In this document: in pieces, positions 7,130 through 49,318 of the stretch
Layout of the letters: each line of letters begins with the position of its first letter
How positions within the stretch are numbered: position 1 is the stretch's first letter
Source of the DNA: Eledone cirrhosa
Taxonomy: Eukaryota
Direction of reading: 5' to 3'
Assembly (NCBI GenBank): GCA_964016885.1
Contig: OZ024743.1
Location: forward strand, 247,256,001-247,320,000
Length of the DNA: 64,000 nt
Made by a program: the position numbers and the translations under genes
Notes under the pieces: generated by a model
The model's database searches: none
Seen by the model: only the letters and a program-made list of their open reading frames with translations
What the model was told of the DNA's origin: nothing

Positions 7130-10100
7130 TTCGTGGAAGCATGACCCACTACATTATAATGGTTCCCTTATAGGGAAAACATCTAACATTCAAATGCCCA
7201 AAACTCTGAGTTGGTACCATCAATGTAAGCACAATGAAAGGAAGAGCAGGAGAAATCATAGAGATGCTAGAGCGAAAGGAAATTGATGTATGCTGTGTGC
7301 AAGAGACTAGATGGAGAGGAGAGTCTGCTAGAGTCCTTGTAGGAAAAAGTCAGTGCTACAAATTGGGCGGTGTAGGTATCCTACTAGCTGACAAGTGGGT
7401 AGATAAAGTAATCTCAGTGAACAGGGTGAATGCAAGAATCATTAAACTCAGACTAGTCCTGAATAAAACAATTACCACAATAATATCAGCTTACGCACCC
7501 CAATCGGGGTTGCCAGACGAACTTAAGGATAGGTTTTTACGAGTCCCTAATGCACACTACTGCTCTAACAAACGACAATGATTTCCTAATCATTGCAGGA
7601 GATTTTAATGGACATGTAGGTAACATGTAGGTAAACCCGACAACCAGCTTATCACCTATAGATCAGCGGAGTATTCTAGTCAGATAGATTTTATCCTCAT
7701 CAGAGGACGTGACAGATGGACGGTCGTAAACACAAAAGCCTTCCCTAGTGAGGAATTTACCTCCCAACATAGCTTAGTTGTCAGCGACCTCACGGTCAGA
7801 ACTAGACGAACCTGGAAACAGAAGCCAACCTGGAGAAGAAAGATCTGGAAGCTAAAAGACCCCTCAGCCAGTAACAGATTTAAAGATATTTTACTCAGTA
7901 AAGAACAGATAGAGATATTCAATGTAGAAGAGCACTGGGAGTTCCTAAAAAATAACTTACTAGAGGCGACGGATGAGATCTGTGGCTGGAGTAAGACCAC
8001 AGGCAGGAGGAGAGTGATTTGGTGGTGGAACAATAAGGTAGATGAGGCAGTTAAGGCCAAGAGACAGGCATGGAAAGAATGGAAGAACGGGGGAAGCAGG
8101 GTACATTACATAGAAACCAGGAGAGAAGCTAGGCAATAAGTATACTTAGCTAGGAGGGAAGCAGAGGATAGAAAATTCAAGCATGTTTTGCAATGTGAGG
8201 ACCAGAAACAAGAGGTGTTCAAGATTGCGAGGCAGTGTGTCAGAGAGAATTGTGATGTCATTGGAGAGAAGTGAATCCGGAATGATAAAGGTGAGCTTGC
8301 CCTCATAAATGCTGAGAAGAAAGATGCATGGAAGAGCCATTATGATAGATTACTAAATGAGGAGAATGCATGGGAAGAAGAGTCCCTACCCCAAGTAGAC
8401 ACTATAGAGGGGCCGGCAGTACAAGTCAGCACCAGCGTAGTAAGTAAGGCAATCAAAATATGAAGACGGGGAAGGCAACTGGTCCATCGGGTATAGCTGC
8501 CGAGATGCTGAAGGCATCTGGGTCGGTAGGTCACACCATAACCACGAGTATTGTTAACCAGGTAATATTAGGTGTCATTGCCAACTGCTACAAAGGTAAA
8601 GGTGATGCACTAGATAGAGGAAACTATAGAGGTATAAAGTTGATGGACCAGGTCATGAAAGTAACAGAAAGAGTTATAGCACAGTTGATTAGGGACTGGG
8701 TGAAACTAGATGAGATGCAATTTGGGTTTGTGCCAGGAAGAGGCACCACTCATGCCCTCTTCCTTGTGAGGCAGCTACAGGAAAAGTACCTAGCTAAAAG
8801 TAAGCCACTCTACCTGGCATTCGTCAATCTCGAGAAAGCCTTTGACAGAGTTCCCCGTGCTATAATCTGGTGGGCTCTTAGAAAACTAGGAGTAGATGAA
8901 TGGCTTGTGAAAGCTGTACAAGCCATGTATAGGGGATCAGTCAGCAAAGTTAGGATTAGCAATGAGTATAGCGAGGAATTTAGCGTACAGGTCGGTGTCC
9001 ACCAGGGCTCTGTTCTTAACCCTCTCCTGTTCATCATAGTCCTGCAGGCAATAACAGAGGAGTTTAAGACCGGATGCCCATGGGAACTCCTGTATGCAGA
9101 TGACCTCGCACTTATAGCTGAATCTATGGTAGAACTAGAGAAGAAATTCCAAACTTGGAAGCAGGGACTAGAAAGAAAGGGTCTCAAAGTCAACCTGACA
9201 AAGACTAAGGTCCTTGTAAGTAGACGAGAAAACAGAACTCAGATCCCCTCAGGGAAATGGCCTTGCTCAGTATGTAGGAAAGGTGTAGGTAGGAACTCCA
9301 TTCTCTTCCCCAAATGCAAACAATAGGTACACAAGAGATGTAGCGGGATCTCAGGAAGCTTAACTAAGAATGTAGGCTTCATATGTAGCAGCTGCGCTGG
9401 GACAGCAAGCAGCAAACAGCCACAAGAAACAAGCACCACCAAACTCTGGGAAGACTCTGTAGAAACAGTAGACCGCTGCTAATTCGGTCACCTAGGTAGC
9501 AGAAGCTGAGGTGGGTGTTCAGAAAGTACAATAACTAGGGTAAGAACGGGATGGAAGAAGTTCAGGAAGCTACTGCCACTGCTAGCTGCAAAAGGCTTTT
9601 CCCTCAAAATGAAAGACAGACTGTATGATGCGTGTATATGAACAGCAATGTTACATGGTAGTGAGACCTGGGCGCTGACTGTGGAAGAGTTGCGCAGATT
9701 AGAAAGAAACGAAGCCTGCATGCTCCGATGGATGTGTAATAGTAATATACGCGAACGGCAAAGCATAAATGAATTGAGAGAGAGACTGAGCATAAGAGGA
9801 ATCAAATGCTGTGTGCAGGAGAGGCGGTTGTGTTGGTATGGACATGTGATGCGTATGAAGGATGACAGCTGCATAAAAAGGTGCAGAGCACTAGAAGTCA
9901 ATGGAAACCGCGGAGTGGGGAGACCCAAGAAGACCTGGGATGGGGTGATAAAAGCCGACCTTATCCAATTACACCTCTTAAAGGCGATGACACACGACCG
10001 TAACCTCTGGCGTCACGCAGTAATACAGAATACCCAACCCCCCCCCCACGAGTAGAAACCGAAGCTGAAGCATATAGACAATATGCCCCCCCACACCCTC

Positions 10101-13472: not shown

Positions 13473-15727
13473 CTAAAAAATATACCAAAATTGTGTGTGA
13501 AAAGTCTGCAAGAGATAGCAAAAATGTATACATTCAGGTAGACATCTGCATCAGGATGTTGTAATAAAGATTGATAAATAACATCATTATTATATCAATG
13601 CAATATAGTATATATCACTAAAATATGAGTAATTGTAATTAAAAAATTTGCAATACAATAGACATGCACCATTTTCAATTTACAAAAATTATGTCATTTA
13701 CTTCTCAGTAAAATTTTCAAAAGAGCATTTAACTGAATAACTTTTGAAAGGTAAGATAACTTTCATAATAAACAAATTCATGACATTAAAAGAATAAATA
13801 ATTGCTCCTAACATTATTATGTAAAAAATATATAAATATTCCTGATTTTTATTCCTTACATCTTCAGATATTTGAAACATGGTCCACTTTTCCTAAGCAC
13901 ACAGGCTTTTTTGTATGAAAATAAACATCAATAAATATCAATCACTATAACTACAATATATTATGATTATTTTATCAACTTGGGCAAGATTAAATTAAGA
14001 TAAAGTCTGTCAAAGGCTCATCAGACTAGTGCTTATTTCAATTTCATTGGGGTTAAGTTATTAAAAGTAAGACTTCTGGTCAGATGGAGCACTAGTCCAA
14101 TACAGGATTATCCCCAAGCTCCTGTGAATACTAATTGTTTTTAACTGAGTGGGTTGATGCAACATAAAATGAATAGTCTCGCACTGCCTCATCTGGGAAT
14201 CAAAACCATGACCATACAATTGTGAGTCAAACACTTTAACCAATAGGCCATGAACCTTCACAACTCAGGCAAGATGAGAAAAATTCAGTGAGATTTGAAC
14301 TTAAAAATGCGAAACACAAAACTAAATACAGTAAAACCTCAAATTTAGCTGTCTACTTTGTTTTAAGAAAAATGTTAAATCTTAAAATTGATACTAAATT
14401 TAACTCTGACATTAAGTACACTAATTAAATATAAACTTGAAAAGCAGGTTTATTACTGCGTTTAATGCAAGTATTTCACTTGAAAAGATGTTTTGGCATA
14501 AAAAGAGTTAAAATATATAAAATATAATTCTCATAACATATTTTATGTTATAACATTAGTTTCAAATATTAATACAAACATCAATTAAAATTACAGACAA
14601 ACTCCTTATGAGAATATAAATGATTACATGAATTTTCTGAAGATCTCCGTGAGATGTGGTTAAATTTAATAATTTAATGCTTGACACATATTTTAATTAT
14701 AGAATACTGTCAAAGCTACAATATTTCTACCAACAAAACTGTAAATTCAATTTTATTTAAATAGAATGATATATGATGATATTTGCCACAAGATCACACA
14801 AAAAAGTAAAAATACAAAACAAAACAATAAAAAACAGGTGTTAAAAAAATTTCATACAAATAAATAAATAGATGAGAATACTCCAAAACTCAATGCCCTC
14901 ATTTCAAGACAAACACCTTCTCCCTGCTCAAGTTTGGAAATGACAGAGAGAGAATTTATTCCTAACATCAAACCTGCTTCTCATACCTACCTTTCATTAT
15001 CCAACATCAAATTTCTCTCTATCTCTCTCCACTCTCACATATATATATGATACACATCATGATACTCAAAAAAGATAACATTTTCACAAAAGTTATGATA
15101 ACAACGAAAAAAAAGATGAAATTTACAGTTCAAATCTATTGCAGGTTTAACTAGCTTCTAACAAGGTTGCTTCTCAGAGGTTTCTTGGAAATTTTAATAG
15201 GGGACTCCAGACCTATCATGAAACAAGTCCCCTCTGGACTTCATGCTATTCTGTTGTAGAGATTAGTTTTGTTTTTCTTTTAAATGGAATAGGGCAAGAC
15301 ACAACTTGCCGTTCAGTCCAGGAATCAAACCTTATGATTGTGAGTCTAACATCCTAACCACCAGGCCATGCACCTTCATAGTAACAACTATGTATTTATG
15401 ATTACAAATAAACTGCTTCTTTTCTTTGTTTGTATGTATGTATGAGTGTTCCTTTTTTTGGTGGGGACACTAATTATAATTAAATATAGCAGAAATGAAA
15501 GACATGTCATATAGAAGAGACTAGCAGAATGGCCCGGCGTTGCTCGGGATTTGTTCTAGGGTTCTTATATATTTGATATATATTTATCCTTATCGAGCCT
15601 CGTGAAATAAATACGTTTGTTTATATGTATATATAGTGTATTTTGCAATACACTGTATGCTTAATTAAAAGCATTTCGAAGACCTTACGCTATTGTTTTA
15701 GAGTAGTGACAGTCTCACTTACTTTAA

Positions 15728-15822
15728 ATTTTCAGCAAACAGGGGAGATAAAGCTGACAGAGCTCTGTTTCGTACTTATTGGTACTTATCAAGGCTAAGT
15801 ACTCCACCTGTTTTCTGAAAAT
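15728..15822 (-). ncRNA. Second copy of the same type I hammerhead ribozyme (sense to the host pre-mRNA)
   Basis: Reverse complement of 16081-16175 apart from loop II (caataa vs caatta) and agcc instead of agct at the base of stem I, which gives a C-A mismatch. Predicted cleavage is between 15756 and 15755. Confidence 0.85.
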
Positions 15823-16080
15823 CATGAATGTTTGATTCTTATAGAATTCTAGTAATAATCAGGAATTGACTATACAGAGCGGTTGCCAGTCAAGCAGAAA
15901 TTGAAAATTAGAATTGGTGCTCTGAAATAGCGATATGTATATGAATGTATATATAGTGTATTTTGCAATACACTGTATGCTTGCACCAATTCTAATTTTC
16001 AATTTCTGCTTGACCGGCAACCGCTCTGTATAATCAGTTCCTGATTATTACTAGAATTCTATAAGAATCAAACATTCATG

Positions 16081-16175
16081 ATTTTCAGAAAACAGGTGGA
16101 GTACTTAGCTTTGATAAGTACCAATTAGTACGAAACAGAGCTCTGTCAGCTTTATCTCCCCTGTTTGCTGAAAAT
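16081..16175 (+). ncRNA. Type I hammerhead ribozyme with U3-A8 core variant
   Basis: Stem I: attttcag-a-aaacagg-t-ggag-(tactt)-agct pairs with agct-(ttat)-ctcc-cctgttt-g-ctgaaaat. Core TTGATAA at 16111-16117. Stem II gtac-caatta-gtac. GAAA at 16132-16135. Stem III cag-agct-ctg. GTC cleavage triplet ends at 16147. Confidence 0.88.
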
Positions 16176-16368
16176 TTAAAGTAAGTGAGACTGTCACTAC
16201 TCTAAAACAATAGCGTAAGGTCTTCGAAATGCTTTTAATTAAGCATACAGTGTATTGCAAAATACACTATATATACATTCATATATATATCGCTATTTCA
16301 GAGCACCAATTCTAACGTTTGTTTATATTTTGTTATTGTGTATGCAAAAATATCTGTACACGAATAAA

Positions 16369-16412
<44 letters not shown>

Positions 16413-16525
16413 TAACAGATTAAAGTTTAAGCAAAGAATCGCTGCTTTCTCCCTTAACGAGATCTTTTGAAACTAAAAAAAATCAATCTGTGAATGCAGA
16501 AGTAAATATTTCGAAAAACGTTATA

Positions 16526-16569
<44 letters not shown>

Positions 16570-19500
16570 TATATATACATATATATACACACACACACAC
16601 ACACATATAGTGTCATAATGTAATGCAGACAGCCAGACATACAGAGATATTATAAGGGTGCAACGTTATATCTATGTATCTATCTAAAAAGAAAGACTAG
16701 ATATAGAGGGATGGCTAATGACTATGCCGACTCCCTAGGGAACTTCGAAACCTCTGCCAACCGATTGTTTTCATCTTTACACATGTAATACTTAAGTATT
16801 ACATGTGTAAAGATTGAAAACAATCGGTTGGGTGGTTCTCGAGTTTTAGGGAGTCGGACAGACAGACATTCTCTGTTTTAGATATATAGATATATATGTC
16901 AAACAGAATTGAGCAAAAAGTCAAAGGAACTATACTAACTTAGCTTATGAACTGAAATAACTGTGTATGAGGGGGGGGGGGGAGTGCAAGACTACTGACT
17001 ACAATTAAAAATTCAATTACAGATATTTTGCACTATTCATTGTCACAGACTACATAGTTGACAGATTCCATTTTTACTTAATGATTGTGTAATAGTAGTT
17101 GAACAACTAGTTTGCCAAACTGTCTGAAACTGCTCCTTGTTTTTCAATACAAACTGTTTGCTTTAATGTGTTTACATTTATCTAAAAAAATTTCCATTGA
17201 AATTTTTTATAATAATTTTTGTTAAGTTATGTTCCAAAACAAGCTTAACTATAAGGAAGTCATTTTACTAAATCTCTCAAAATTACTTGAAATTTCATAG
17301 GCAGTGTCTTTCATTAGAAATATGATAATGAAAGGATTAAATATATAATTGTTCCAGTAATTTAACAAAAAAAAAAAAATTTGATCCACATATTCTCGCA
17401 TAGAAAAATAATAAGGCCAACAATTTAAGGAAAGAGGAAAAGTCATTTAAATCGATCTTCAGTACTTGACTGGTTCTTATTTTATTGACTCCTGAAGGAT
17501 GAGAGGCAAAGTTGACCAAAGCTGAATGATTTCTAATTTAAGCATAAGGTCAGAAATTGGGGAGGAAGCAATTATATTGACCCTGATACTTGAATGGTAC
17601 TTTATGTTATTGCCCTTGAAAGGATGAAAGGCAAAGTTGACCTTGGAAGTATTTAAACTCAGGAAGTTAAGAACCAGAACAAATACCACAAAACATGTTG
17701 ATGTACTAACAATTCTGCCAATCTATCACTCTGTAAATATGTAATAATTATTTCTAACTGAGAAATCCTAAAGCCGCAAATGTTGGGAGAAGGAACAGTC
17801 AACAAAATTGCTCTCAGTATTTCATCAACTGCAAAATCTAAATTGACTCCAGGAGGCTTTGAAAGTAAAGTAACATAGCCAAATCTTCTCATGGGCCCCT
17901 TCAATCAGGACTGAACATGGGTTTGCACCTGAAAAGTCCCTCACCATGGTGCAAGCCTGAGCAAAGTGCTTTGCGAAAAACCATGCATGCCATTTACCCA
18001 TCTCCGCAACTCATTTTTTTCCAGCTGAATTGAACTTTTGACCTTGTGATTGTATGCCCAACACACTAACCACTAAGTCAAACACCTTCAAGCATAGCTA
18101 AATACTGTGTGGTATTTAGACCACACACTACTGTTTCTTATCAGATTCTCTGCTGAACAGCTAATTAGGTATAAAGGCAAAACTCATTAAAAAAAACAAA
18201 AGACATGTTCCAGATTTTCAGCCAGACACTCATCATTGGCATTTGGCAAAGAAATAAAGAAAAACTCCTTGTTTTTACTGATGTAATTTTTAACATGATT
18301 TACTGTTCTGTAAAAAATAAATGATAATGATTTCTTGAATTGGCACAAAGCCACAAGTTTGTAGAAAAGAGGTGTATTCAATTGATTATTATTATTATTA
18401 TTGTTGTTTCTTCGTTCAGCTTCTAACACTGGAGATGTATTACAATGCCAGCTGTTCTCTACCAGTGAACTGAGGTAACACCCCTTAATTTTGATTGTTA
18501 TTATTATTATTATATAGGTGATTGATTAGCAGAATGCCAGAGTAAATACCTTGTAGCATGCAATTGCATATCATATTCATAATTCAAATCCAACAGCAGT
18601 TGCCTTTCTTTTTTTACACCTCTTTTGTCAATAAAATGAGTGCCAGTCAATTATAGGAGTCAATTTAATGCCCTGTGTCTCTTCCTATAACTGTTTGGTC
18701 TTGTATTAAAATTAGAAATCATTATTATATTACGGGGTTGATAAAATAAAGTACCAGTAATACACTGGAATAATTGCTGGCCTTGTGCCAAAAGTAGAAA
18801 CAATTATTATATTACTAATACATCTTTATGAAACTGGTAGAATGAAAAGCAAAGGTAAATCTAGCCAGATTTATACTCAGAATGTAAAAAGATGTAACCA
18901 AATATTGCAAGGCCTTCTGTCTAGCATTTTACTTTTCCTACCAATTCTCTCTCTCTCTCTCATTTTGCTAACCTATTACTTTTCTCCTTAATGACTTGAT
19001 GTTTGCTCTCTCTCTCTCAAAGAAATCAACTGTATTTTGACCTGGAGAGGGATGGACACAGCCAAGTTTAAAAGACTTCTGGACACTGCTACAACTCCAT
19101 GGACCACTTCACCACCCTAATACTTATAACAATAGTAACAAAACATCCATATATTTCAAGGATATCACATGTTTGACAAGGAAAGGAAAGGAACCAATCA
19201 TCAGATTAAAAGGAATCAATTGGTCCTTCCATAGTTGATACTATTGCCAGTTGAAACTCCTGGTAGAACAAGGCAGGATTTAAACTCAGATTGGACAGAA
19301 CCAGATCAGATACCGCATAGCACCCTTCCCGACTAACAATTCTGCCAATATACCATCCCAGGAGTACTCAACTCCAAAAGGATGTAAAGCAAAGTTGACC
19401 CCATCAACATTTGAGTTAGCATAAAAACCATGCTAAAAATAGAACATGTTCAGTGGTTTTGATTAAGTACTGACCTAATCTGTAACAACCCACCCAACCC

Positions 19501-19966: not shown

Positions 19967-20789
<823 letters not shown>

Positions 20790-24474: not shown

Positions 24475-26565
24475 AGGCTCCAGAATCCTGGAATTCTGTG
24501 ACGCAAATAACCTAACTATCTGTAACACTAACTTCAAAAAAACGTGACAATCACCTGATCACCTATAGATCCGGGGAACACACAAGCCAGGTAGATTATA
24601 TCCTTACCAGAAGACGTGACAGAGTGTCTGTTGTAAACACTAAATCCCTCCCCCATGAAGAATGCACCTCCCAACATAGACTGATAATTAGCGACCTCAT
24701 AGTCAGGACGAGACGTACTCGACAGCAGAAAAGGACTATCCTCAGGAGAAAAATATGGAAGCTAAAGGACCCCACAGCCAGAAATAAATTTCAAAGCATA
24801 TTACTTGATGCTTTCGACAGTAAGGAAGAGCATTTAGAGTCGGACAATATAGAGAGACAGTGGGAATTTCTGAAAGCAAACCTGCTGATGGCGACAGACG
24901 AAGTCTGTGGCTGGAGCAGGCCTGTAGGCAGGAGGAGAGTAACATGGTGGTGGAACAGTAAGGTGGAGGGGTCAATTAAAGCCAAAAAGCAGGCTTGGAA
25001 AGTATGGCGGGATGGGGAAAGTAGAGAAGACTATCAAGTGGCCAGGAGGGAAGCTAGGAGACAAGTGTACTTCGCAAGAAGGGAAGCAGAGGAAAGAAAG
25101 TTCAAGCATGTTCTACAACGCGAGGACCAAAAACGTGACGTGTTCAGGATTGCTAGGCAATGCGTCAAGGAAAACCGTGATATTGTCGGGGAGAAGTGTG
25201 TACTTAATGATGACAGCGTACTTGCCATCACCGACGCTGATAAGAAGGTAGCTTGGAAGTGTCACTATGAAAGGCTACTAAATGAGGAGAATAAATGGGA
25301 GAAAGACAGTCTCCCCCACATCGACCCAATAGAGGGACCAGCAGTGTTAGTCGAGGGGAGTATAATAAGTAAGGCAATCAAGGATATGAAGACGGGTAAG
25401 GCGGCTGGGCCTTCGGAAATAGTTGCGGAGATGCTGAAGGCATCTGGCACGGTGGGACACACCATGGTCACCCGCATAGTTAACCAAGTCATACAGAATG
25501 GGGTTGTTCCGAAGGACTGGCATAGCAGCATCATCGTGAACTGTTATAAGGGTAAAGGAGATGCCCTAGATAGGAGTAACTATAGAGGCATTAAATTAAT
25601 CGACCAGGTCATGAAGGTCACGGAAAAAGTAATAGCGCAACTAATCAGAGAGAGAATTGACCTAGATGAAATGCAGTTTGGGTTTGTGTCAGGCAAAAGT
25701 ACCACAGACGCTCTTTTCATTGTACGACAACTACAGGAGAAGTACCTAGCTAAAGGTAAACCCCTCTACTTAGCTTTTGTCGACTTGGAGAAAGCCTTCG
25801 ACAGAGTCCCCCGCTCCATTATCTGGTGGGCTCTTAGAAAACTAGGTGTTGACGAATGGCTTGTGAGAGCCATACAAGCCATGTATAAAGAAACAGTCAG
25901 CAAGGTTAGAATTAACAACGAAGAGAGTTAAGAGTTTAGCGTAAAAGTTGGTGTCCATCAGGGCTCTGTTCTCAGCCCCCTACTATTTATTATTGCCCTT
26001 CAGGCTATAACAGAGGAGTTCAAGACCGGCTGCCCATGGGAACTCCTATACGCAGACGACCTGACACTCATAGCTGAATCAATGGCCGAGCTAGAGAAGA
26101 AATTCCAAACATGGAAGCACGGCCTAGAATCAAAAGGCCTTAAAATTAACCCGGCTAAGACTAAAGTTCTAGTTTGTAGGAAAGAAAATAAGGCGGCGGT
26201 CCCTTCTGGGAAATGGTCATGCTCAGTGTGTAGGAAAGGCGTAGGTAGAAACTCCATTTTATGTCCTAAATGCAAAGTATGGGTGCATAAAAGATGTAGT
26301 GGGATCACAGGTAAGCTAACTAAGAACATAGATTTCACATGTGGCCGGTGCTCTGGTGCAATAAGTAGCAGCAAGTGCCCACAAAATACTAGCTCTTTCA
26401 ATTGTGCAGAGGGTTCTATAGAAATAGTGGACAGCTTCCGTTACCTGGGCGATAAAATCAGCAGTGGGGGAGGGTGCTCTGAAAGTACAGTAGCTAGAGG
26501 GGAATACCCCCGTCCAAACCCATGCAAGCGTGGAACACGGACGTTAAACGTTGATGATGATGATG
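24475..26565 (+). mobile_element. 5'-truncated RTE LINE with a deletion joining the RT thumb directly to the 3' tail
   Basis: 435-aa ORF 24624-25931 plus 26082-26497 (RT motifs, intact C4HC3 finger, FRYLG). It jumps at about 26497 to cccgtccaaacccatgcaagcgtggaacacggacgttaaacgtt(gat)n. Confidence 0.95.
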
Positions 26566-27006
26566 ATATATATATATATATATTATATATATATATGTAT
26601 GAATGAATGAATGAATGAAGTAATTCCATCGGAAAGGTCCAGGAAAAAAGAGTGCTCTATGTAGGTTACAGAGCTTAATAGTTATGTAATAAACAACAAG
26701 GTAATTATTTCATTTACCAGTGGTTTCTTGAAAGCAAACATGTATGTATGTGTATATATATATATATATACGATATTAAATAAATGGAAACTATATTTAT
26801 AAAACCATATTTATTTCACTATACATATTTCAGGGATACCAGATTAAAAAACTTGTCGAGTGCTTTATATCAGTTATAAAATATTTACTTGTTGTATCCC
26901 AACAATTTTAAATAGAACTTTTGCATATATATATAACCTCCTCCTATATATATATATATATTTAAGAGTTAAATAAGGTTCAATGAATACTTCTAAGAAT
27001 GAGTTT

Positions 27007-28377: not shown

Positions 28378-29700
28378 ATCATCATCATCATCATCAACGT
28401 TTAACGTCCGTGTTCCACGCTTGCATGGGTTTGGACGGGGGTAGTCCCACTTGAGGCAAGAGTGATTGTCTTGCTCGCATAGGACTGTCTGGCAGGTTTT
28501 CTACAGTTGGATGCCCTTCCTAACACCAACCACATTTACAGTGTGGGTCTGGGAGGTTTTTATCGTGTTGCCTACACGGCCACATTACAGCGTGGACTGT
28601 GTGTTTTTTTGTCGTGACACCTACACGATCTCATTTGTTTCGGCCTGGATGGCGCGGCACCAACATAACTTTACATAGAACGGGGTGGTGTGGATGGGGT
28701 GGGGGTGGGGGTGGTGGGACGGGGTGTATTTTGTTAGAGATGCCTACTGGCTGGAGTAGGTTTTACTATATATTTAGGTAAGGCGGGTCTTCTCTGTTAC
28801 TGAGTACCGCCAAAGGTCTCGGTCCAGTGACATTGTCTTGGAGAGGTGTAAGTGTGTGAGGTCGGAGTTTATCAGCTCGTCCCAGGTTTTTCTAGGTCTG
28901 CCTATTCCGTGGCTACCGTCTATCTTTATTGCCCTGCACTTTGTTATACAGCTATCGACTTTCATGCGCATCACGTGTCCATACCAACGTATTAGACACT
29001 ATCTGCCTGTCCCGCTGCCTAACTAGCAGGAAGTCAATCTGGCTTATGTGCTCACCAGATTTGTAGGTTATTAGGTGATTGGCAGGTTTCTGGAAGTTTG
29101 TGTTGCAAATAGTCAATGTACCCGCATCACAAAATTCAAGAAGTCTCACTCCTTCTTCATTTCTTGAACCGTAACCGTGCCCACCATGTACCCCAGTGTA
29201 ACCATCCTGGAGCTGTCCAACATGACCATTGAAATCTCCTGCTAGCATAACAATGTCTCCGTCCTCTGTCATTGCGGTTGTTTGCAAAAGTTGCTCATAA
29301 AAGCAGTCTTTCTCATCTTTGCCTAGGCCTGCTTGGGGAGCATAGGCCGAGATGATTGTCTGTAGTCTCCTACCTACAACTAATCTAAGCTTAATTATTC
29401 GATTACTAACTCGAACTACCTCTATTGTCTTATTGATCCATTTCTCAGCCAGGAAAATGCCTACTCCCCCTAGCCCATCATCCTTACCTACCCAGAATAG
29501 CTTATAGCTAAGACGCTTGCCTACGACTAGTCTCGCAGAGGCACCTCTCCATCTCACCTCTTGCACGCAGCACACATCCACCTGCCTTCTCTCCAGCATC
29601 TCCGCTATTTCAGCAGATCTACCTCTGAGAGTGCCAACATTAAGTGTTGTAAAATGGAGGGGTAGAGAGGGCCCTTGAGTCTAGTAAGACATCCTCTCTA
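28378..29700 (-). mobile_element. Internally deleted RTE (endonuclease domain fused to 3' end)
   Basis: ORF 28952-29599 is an uninterrupted APE domain. At about 28990 the sequence switches to the WYGHVMRM...KTRLT C-terminus, the 3' UTR and the (GAT)n tail. The RT is absent. Confidence 0.93.
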
Positions 29701-47486: not shown

Positions 47487-49318
47487 GTGTACTTAGTGTC
47501 ATGAATGATCAGAAAAAGGAGGCCTGGAAATGTCATTATGAGAGACTGATGAATGTGGAGAACGAATGGGAGAGAGAGAAATTACCCTTAGTAGATCCGA
47601 CAGAGGGACCAGCTATTGAGATTGACGAATATAGGGTCCAAGAGGCGATTAGAGAAATGAAAAATGATAAGGCTGCTAGATCATCGGGAATAGTTGCTGA
47701 GATGCTGAAGGCATCAGGGGATGTAGGCACTAAACTGGTTGCACGCATCATCAATCAGGCTATATATGGTGGTGTCATACCCAAAGACTGGTGCAGTAGT
47801 ATTCTCATAATTGCTACAAAGGTAAAGGGGATGCTCTGGAGAGGAGCAATTATAGGAGTATAAAACTGATAGACCAGGTTATGAAAGTGGCAGAAAGGAT
47901 ATTAGCACAACTAATTAGAGAAAGGGTCAAACTAGATGAGATGCAGTTTGGTTTTGTGCCTGGGAAGAGTACAACAGATGCCCTCTTCTTGGTGAGACAA
48001 TTGCAAGAGAGGTTCTTAGAGAAAAATAAGCCACTATACTTAGCCTTTGTTGACCTAGAGAAGGCCTTTGATAGGGTACCCCGATCTGTCATCTGGTGGT
48101 CCCTAAGGAAGCTAGGTGTTGAGGAATGGCTTGTGAGGACAGTGCAAACTTTGTACAGAGGTACTCTCAGTAAAGTCAGGGTAGGAATGGAGTTTAGTGA
48201 GGAATTCAGGATACAAGTAGGAGTACATCAGGGTTCAGTCCACAGCCCGCTCTTGTTCATTATAGTCCTCCAAGCCATAACAGAGGAGTTTAAGACTGGC
48301 TGTCCATGGGAACTTCTCTATGCTGACGATCTGGTTCTTATAGCAGAATCAGTAGAGGAGCTAGAGAATAAATTCTGGCTATGGAAACAGCAGTTGGAAG
48401 CAAGAGGACTGAGAGTGAACCTAGCTAAGACAAAAGTGTTGATGAGTAGAAAAAAGGACAAAACCATGATTCCATCAGGGAAATGGCCATGTTCGATATG
48501 CAGAAAAGGAACTGGCATAAATTCTATAAAATGCACACAATGCAGATCCTGGGTACACAAGAGATGTAGCGGGATAGCAGGCAAACTAACAGGTAGGGAA
48601 AATATGTATGCAGTAGATGTACAGGGAAATTAGACAGTAGAAGTCGCATTGATAGACACATTTTTCAAATGCAGGAGGGCGCTATAGAAGTGGATAGCTT
48701 CCGGTACGGTACCTAGGAGATCAGATTAGCATGGGAGGAGGGTGTTCCGAGGCCATAGTATCTAGAATAAAGACGGGTTGGAAGAAGTTTAGGGAGCTGC
48801 TTTCTCTGTTGACGAAGAAGGGTTTCTCCCTGCGTACGAAAGGCCGGTTGTATGATGCCTGTGTGAGGAGCGCAACGCTGCATGGTAGTGAGACATGGGC
48901 AGCAACTGCAGAGGATATGCGACGGCTGGAGAGAAATGAGGCAAGCATGCTCCGTTGGTTGTGCAGTGTAAATGTGCGTGAACGACCCAGCATAAATGTG
49001 TTGAGAGAGAAACTGTGTCTGAGAGGGATAGAATGTAGTGTACGGGAGAGGAGACTGAGGTGGTATGGACATGTGATGCGCATGGAGGATGACCGATGGG
49101 TAAAGAAGTGCCAGGAAATGCCAGTTGAAGGAAGACGTGGTAGAGGTAGACCACGAAAAACATGGGCGGAGGTGGTGAGAACGGACCTCAGATCATTGAA
49201 GCTCACAGTGGAGATGACGAAGGACCGTGACGAGTGGAGAGATGCTGTGCTGAATAAGACCCGTCCCACCCTTGCAAGCAGGGAAAAGCGAACGTAAAAT
49301 GATGATGATGATGATGAT
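47487..49318 (+). mobile_element. 5'-truncated RTE LINE (subfamily whose ORF runs into the 3' tail)
   Basis: ORFs 47501-47863, 47881-48633 and 48731-49297 are frameshifted pieces of one RT ORF ending KTRPTLASREKRT*, followed immediately by (GAT)n. Confidence 0.95.

Follow-up and report, generated by a model that had tools for sequence, protein, structure and literature searches.

The locus at 15613-16328 of the window, by which we mean the whole 64-kb stretch of Eledone cirrhosa DNA analyzed here, raises the question of how a short sequence came to be inserted as two arms which are both longer than one repeat unit and face each other head-to-head. The preliminary description, made from the sequence alone, saw in it a candidate retrozyme family copied by two priming events from a circular or multimeric RNA. 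We come to the conclusion that the unit is very probably a non-autonomous, retrozyme-like element mobilized by the reverse transcriptase (RT) and GIY-YIG endonuclease of Penelope-like elements (PLEs), with either a circle or an uncleaved chain of units as template. Elsewhere in the window there are LINE-type fragments (8448-9326, 24516-26606, 28952-29680 and 47800-48633, with Pfam RT, PHD finger and endonuclease domains) and a perfect (GT)n tract of 819 bases (19969-20787), which is unusually long and pure.

Structure of the insertion and its target site

The unit U was defined as window positions 15983-16302 (+), 320 nt with a GC content of 0.33, and U positions are counted from there. The insertion and its surroundings consist of:

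15518..16898 (unstranded): dispersed host repeat which received the insertion, not part of the element
15613..15626 (+): left copy of the target site duplication (TSD), 14 bp, single copy in empty paralogous sites
15625..15982 (-): left arm, 358 nt, U259 round to U296, reverse complement
15983..16315 (+): right arm, 333 nt, U1 round to U13, outer 3' end of the tail (T) class
16315..16328 (+): right copy of the TSD, 14 bp, single copy in empty paralogous sites

Remeasurement gave exactly the reported picture of a 320-nt unit in two opposed arms (head-to-head, 358 and 333 nt), placed the 14-bp direct repeats at 15613-15626 and 16315-16328, and turned about six arm differences seen by eye into six counted ones. 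The arms meet bluntly at 15982/15983, with microhomology absent. The left arm overlaps the TSD by 2 nt and the right arm by 1 nt, and the left arm has an outer 3' end of the short (S) class, which falls 12 nt before the main site. The unit had been called ORF-less, in accordance with which the longest stop-to-stop frames in the element are merely 41 aa (+) and 53 aa (-).

An inverted junction could be an assembly or read fold-back artefact, and none of the public contigs compared spanned the whole stretch. However, the left arm has five of the six differences nearly to itself, while a rare allele at U107 (8/187) is common to both arms, which disfavors a read artefact and favors a common template. 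The TSD also matches empty sites, and 51 of 83 other parsed insertions share this two-arm inverted architecture, as had been predicted, with different junctions. An artefact is therefore hardly conceivable.

The host repeat is about 1.4 kb long and has 484 candidate copies in the genome. It had been suggested to look for an empty site carrying the 14-mer once. In 19 of 20 matches to paralogous host-repeat loci (19 loci) the 14-mer is present once and followed by the right-flank sequence, 17 of these continuing with at least 39 of 44 identical bases and two diverging after the first bases; the remaining match breaks off. Public contigs show the joint 15612>16315, a skip of 702 bases with 14 letters common. 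As the empty sites contain a single 14-mer, the direct repeat is a true TSD and the insertion amounts to 688 bp plus a 14-bp duplication. Among the 51 inverted copies scanned for unique TSDs there was one doubtful case, TSD length not being measurable where the target is (AT)n. The host repeat itself (15518-16898) exists in hundreds of near-identical copies, with (TA)n/(CA)n tracts inside and, at 16757-16831, a long hairpin; its ends may resemble those of Helitron-associated short elements. Another host-repeat copy (L147) carries an independent insertion of the unit family.

The predicted hammerhead ribozyme

The ribozyme features are:

16107..16151 (+): predicted type I hammerhead, from motif scan, alignment and pair counts
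16111-16117 (+): U3-A8 core
16118-16131 (+): stem II
16132-16135 (+): GAAA
16135-16146 (+): palindromic stem III, predicted cleavage after 16147
16081..16175 (+): long stem I extension around the ribozyme, 5 pairs changed on both sides between subfamilies
15752..15796 (-): left-arm hammerhead, whose stem I closing pair is disrupted by a near-private change at 15793

Every unit carries one hammerhead, whose stem II is 4 bp long. One type I hammerhead per unit with predicted cleavage after 16147 is what the preliminary description had proposed, and this part stands; the core, however, is a U3-A8 variant. Such a core is reported to be active in vitro (PMC3088659) and to be contained in Schistosoma PLEs (PMC4209133). 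Rfam gave zero matches at the gathering threshold and weak matches to HH9 (E 0.06-0.08), while matches to miRNA families at E-value level were set aside, as they reflect the hairpin only. In the 3.0 Gb genome searched, the core pattern has 867 exact matches against 0 for the reversed control, so the hammerhead core is not a product of chance. Across 31 sequences 94.5% of stem cells are paired (slid controls 36-51%). Eight pairs, in the core, stem II and long stem I, show double-sided changes in these 31 sequences, a number which 33 of 500 shuffles also reach; the core 3-8 pair is among them (CG in 17, UA in 14). The covariation comes essentially from two subfamilies and consequently represents few independent events. 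Judging from the alignment, ribozyme pairing is conserved by compensatory changes between the subfamilies, and in one array (L269) stem II differs again, by two compensatory changes. For the right arm, minimum-energy folding predicts an alternative structure that lacks the active hammerhead junction, and the predicted circular fold of the unit is stable (z about -5).

Copies, subfamilies and arrays

The unit family has hundreds of copies, as the 867 core matches indicate, in agreement with the many copies foreseen. We parsed 83 insertions from the first 100 listed core matches, in positional order on contig C1; four duplicate loci were dropped, and the matches at L017, L008 and L023 lie outside the 83. 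The parsed copies show no sign of an LTR architecture. A sister subfamily, first found at L032, is about 78% identical to the main one and has the canonical C3-G8 core, with 98 exact core matches. In both subfamilies the unit is closed and alignable all round. Tandem arrays, which had also been predicted, are present: 18 of 112 arms cover at least two cleavage sites in a sample chosen for having one core, and arrays range from 5 to at least 16 units. Two of them are satellite-like and extend past the fetched stretches, L269 (contig C2 208897000-208902700) with at least 16 and L267 with at least 10 units. L269 has a higher-order structure and heterogeneous units. Both L269 and L270 were amplified at the DNA level, and long arrays therefore need not be RT products. 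Partial public matches labelled as other organisms suggest that relatives carry the unit family as well. L005 (C2, 384.97 Mb) and L006 (C2, 384.65 Mb), separated by about 320 kb, repeat one insertion together with its flanks in opposite orientation, which suggests a segmental duplication or an assembly duplicate.

Two fixed 3' ends and two probable primings

Three features of the unit concern its ends:

16281..16290 (+): internal AT run, U299-308, main S end and putative first RT start site
16291..16315 (+): tail between the S and T end classes
16181..16301 (+): possible retained intron, 121 nt from donor-like to acceptor-like motif, speculative

The 135 outer 3' ends of the 83 insertions fall into 60 at the short site, 57 at the tail site and 18 elsewhere, so that 117 of them lie in two windows making up 8% of the unit. 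The short window was set at U296-308 partly so as to include the window insertion; narrower counts are 56 ends at U305-308 and 52 at U14-17. The two sites are 26-29 nt apart, and a TA-rich flank adjoins 89 of the 117 classed ends compared with 0 of the 18 unclassed. In contrast to these fixed 3' ends, the 128 5' ends are uniform around the unit (chi-square p 0.69), with no enrichment at the ribozyme cut, near which one of the 128 lies. The random permutation points that had been predicted are thus borne out for the 5' ends and contradicted for the 3' ends. Fixed ends had been named beforehand as evidence against the proposal, but those found match the PLE tail signature and thereby strengthen the PLE link. 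PLEs are described as carrying 30-40 bp of tail on one end, inserting into (TA)n and leaving inverted copies truncated on the 5' side (PMC8557442), and the tail corresponds in vitro to two RT start sites (PMC11167929). The unit's tail of 26-29 nt is slightly under the 30-40 nt usually quoted for PLEs. The donor-like and acceptor-like splice motifs are conserved in both subfamilies and bracket the short start site in both. The acceptor-like AG is straddled by the two start sites, and a PLE family described below (L061) appears alike; no spliced unit copy was seen among the genomic copies.

Both ends are classed in 36 of the 51 two-arm inverted insertions, and 15 have an unclassed end. The 36 comprise 32 short+tail, three short-short and one tail-tail pair (p about 1e-6). 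In the sister subfamily 41 of 44 ends lie in the two windows and 12 of 13 classed pairs are short+tail. Junctions of inverted insertions mostly show an overlap (microhomology) of 1-8 nt.

Head-to-head arms could also arise when one cDNA folds back and primes itself, as has been proposed for such PLE structures (PMC3846280) and as arms usually of one haplotype would permit, or by LINE-1-style twin priming with non-overlapping arms, LINE RT fragments being common in the window. Fold-back is contradicted by the window insertion, where each arm has a unit run longer than the other arm offers in that register, and by junctions that are not palindromes. As for twin priming, the arms overlap, arm ends close to the other start site number 5 of 64, as many as expected (5), a poly(A) end is absent, and two fixed ends are a PLE trait. 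We regard both routes as very improbable. Since neither arm is a fold-back copy and twin-priming geometry is absent, we infer two independent primings, the explanation originally put forward, with which the prevalence of S+T pairs is in accordance.

A repeating RNA as the probable template

A template longer than one unit, already suspected from this locus, is corroborated by 65 of 128 arms which exceed the unit and run seamlessly into the next one, without a break at ribozyme sites. The most extended case (L268) is a single arm of 4592 nt with 14 units and its short end beside (AT)n, and in an inverted pair (L271) one arm has 6 units. Divergence among the L268 units is flat with distance (0.129 adjacent, 0.133 far), i.e. 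near star-like, yet they have 57 shared variants compared with 33-50 under a star model, and one site is split 9:5. Haplotype concordance is 92.5% between arms of one insertion and 91% among units within an arm, against a baseline of 61%, and rare alleles are shared between arms in 50 of 556 cases against 0.9%. Haplotype concordance and shared rare alleles speak for both arms having been copied from the same template.

A circle would explain the multi-unit arms most simply, and an uncleaved multimer would fit as well. It is a real possibility that the same PLE machinery copied an uncleaved linear transcript of tandem arrays, which would require no circle, the ribozyme being silent or active at a different step: the arrays L267 and L269 could supply multimers, and 8 of 9 Xenopus retrozyme dimers are reported uncleaved in vitro (bioRxiv 2026.07.22.740005). 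On the other hand, arms carry one haplotype whereas the L269 array is heterogeneous, ribozyme pairing has been kept by compensatory changes in at least two subfamilies, and a 14-unit template would need 14 sites left uncut. In coral and mussel, retrozyme RNA is reported to build up in circular form (PMC7229834). We therefore lean towards a template that would be a circle, made from tandem transcripts self-cleaved to monomers and ligated.

Probable Penelope-like partners and apparent hybrids

One check proposed at the outset was whether the unit is the pLTR of a coding Penelope element. The genome has 10,597 GIY-YIG candidate loci, of which 150 were scored. In the 50 inspected (30 top and 20 long-ORF loci) no pLTR similarity to the unit was detectable, so the unit is not the pLTR of any coding element found there and homology did not identify a parent or partner. 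The sole match in this partner search (L032) was rejected as a sister-subfamily insertion in (AT)n at a PLE end. That the unit is nevertheless merely such a pLTR, the loci being truncated ends of a coding PLE, is improbable. pLTRs, too, show a tail, inversion, a ribozyme and (AT)n targeting, and the inspected loci are a small part of the candidates; however, the long arms (65 of 128) enter the next unit and not an ORF or shared UTR, none of 31 outer 5' flanks contains a same-orientation ORF of the unit's own family, and the unit closes on itself in both subfamilies.

The coding PLEs of this genome have U3-A8 hammerheads, (AT)n targets and two ends. One of them, L061:1809-4622 (-), has a 938-aa RT + GIY-YIG frame between repeats, with the CxxxxCxxC linker that marks Neptune and Nematis (PMC8557442). 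Together with its relatives L062, L066, L070 and L072 it represents a young Neptune/Nematis-type family of repeat-ORF-repeat structure with a U3-A8 hammerhead, and the last 7 bases of the family's tail end are the same as those of the unit's.

Inspection by eye of the 31 outer 5' flanks gave six apparent head-to-head hybrids (L222/L252, L247, L177, L176, L217 and L183) and one clear same-orientation junction; L239 and L179 are ambiguous in this tally. In L252 the order is (AT)n, tail-ended unit arm, head-to-head junction with imperfect microhomology, 5'-truncated PLE and (AT)n. The PLE part is of Neptune/Nematis type and comprises part of the RT, endonuclease, UTR, ribozyme and short end. The end classes are readable in L252 and L177, and in both they are complementary to that of the unit arm. 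For the partner frame of L247 Pfam found no family, while an Atlas lead points to GIY-YIG (0.96, 23% of cluster members); in Pfam, an L252 frame picked by hand, and probably not the right one, gave only sub-threshold noise. The hybrids are few and involve several partner families. If they are real, the two primings can use different RNAs; they could also reflect nesting of insertions at (AT)n hot spots, accompanied by deletions. The partner is likely a Neptune/Nematis-type PLE, and more than one PLE family may serve as such.

Other candidates were not accepted as hybrids. In L209/L251, where the unit lies beside a PLE ORF, the unit has its own short second arm and the locus looks like an insertion plus deletion, and L194 was rejected likewise. 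L210 adjoins a PLE-type element in the same orientation. Other short hammerhead families ending at (AT)n were noted at L066:173-352, L070, L078, L192, L176, L177 and L194 and in the L034 and L068 flanks, at least two of them having 46-60 nt between their short and tail ends. Many PLE riders seem to be present in the genome, nesting in one another's microsatellites.

A model of the insertion process

In the process we propose, a PLE endonuclease would nick both strands of an AT-rich target, 14 nt apart at this locus, leaving two 3' overhangs. The cDNA primed by one overhang would begin at the short site and that primed by the other 26-29 nt further downstream, at the tail site, after which each cDNA would run back over the repeating template and stop at random. 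The cDNA ends would then be joined head-to-head, usually via 1-8 nt of microhomology and bluntly in the window insertion, and gap filling would give rise to the TSD. More tentative is the supply of the template, for which tandem copies would be transcribed, the transcripts self-cleaved into monomers and these ligated into the circle. We also raise, as a speculative extension, that a dimeric PLE enzyme may copy the circle for up to 14 turns, using one start site per subunit or strand, with the loading of two RNAs giving hybrids. If true, a dimer working on a circle would provide genomic proof of the retrozyme mobilizer and a general rule for inverted structures and tails of PLEs.

Comparison with known systems

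PLE mobilization of retrozymes has already been proposed (PMC7229834; bioRxiv 2026.07.22.740005); for animals, mobilization of their circular RNAs by PLEs is a published hypothesis that draws on co-occurrence and pLTR similarity. As the kind of element is already known, the value of the unit family lies in mechanism and not in a new class. How inverted, tailed PLE insertions are built is stated to be open in the PLE papers cited here, and on both questions the unit family offers countable footprints: a near-strict short+tail pairing, rare alleles common to both arms, arms of several turns and what appear to be hybrids of two RNAs. It also supplies a 320-nt substrate, two start sites and candidate partner enzymes. 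We found no description of the family, the pairing rule or the hybrids in searches of open-access literature. No mollusc is among the groups named for the 35 genomes of bioRxiv 2026.07.22.740005, and the terms hammerhead, retrozyme and ribozyme do not occur in the main text of an octopus repeat annotation from 2026. Repbase or Dfam may contain the unit as an unnamed or Penelope-type repeat.

The unit resembles metazoan non-LTR retrozymes as these are described (PMC7229834; bioRxiv 10.64898/2026.07.22.740005) in being an ORF-less unit of a few hundred nt with 33% GC and a type I hammerhead, in occurring from monomers to long tandems, and in its TSD of >4 bp, stable circular fold and co-occurrence with PLEs. 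Among the features by which retrozymes are recognized, the following are found here: a hammerhead in each unit, a low-GC non-coding unit within 150-450 bp, tandems with at least two ribozymes and a TSD of >4 bp. Unlike the retrozymes described, the main subfamily has a U3-A8 core and consists mostly of dispersed inverted insertions. The unit, which is known from DNA, is tied to PLEs mechanistically, by two fixed RT start sites and hybrid insertions, whereas retrozymes are tied to them by co-occurrence or pLTR homology.

With EN+ PLEs (PMC3846280; PMC8557442; PMC11167929) the unit shares head-to-head 5'-truncated arms, a tail confined to one end, a ribozyme followed downstream by two start sites, insertion into AT-rich or (TA)n sequence, a TSD in the range of about 8-14 bp and possibly a retained intron. 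The RT + GIY-YIG ORF between pLTRs that characterizes autonomous EN+ PLEs is absent from the unit, which, in contrast to them, closes on itself and has a tail of 26-29 nt. A similar relationship is described in Chlamys, where non-autonomous MRC1 elements (Craig 2021, PMC8557442) are PLE riders with multicopy head-to-tail insertions. Chlamys riders generally resemble an autonomous family at the 3' end while for the unit no homologous partner was found, and that clade is reported to lack canonical hammerheads while the unit has one (PMC8557442). The hammerheads of the Schistosoma Cercyon PLEs (PMC4209133) are also of the U3-A8 type and occur as opposite-strand motif pairs 100-700 bp apart, and motifs related to them have a palindromic helix III, as in the unit. 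Those of Cercyon are minimal pLTR ribozymes, whereas in the unit stem III is complete, with 4 bp, and stem I is long (PMC4209133). Finally, in the in vitro system of Frangieh 2024 (PMC11167929) the start site is the same on both strands, whereas 32 of 36 classed insertions of the unit pair the short site on one strand with the tail site on the other.
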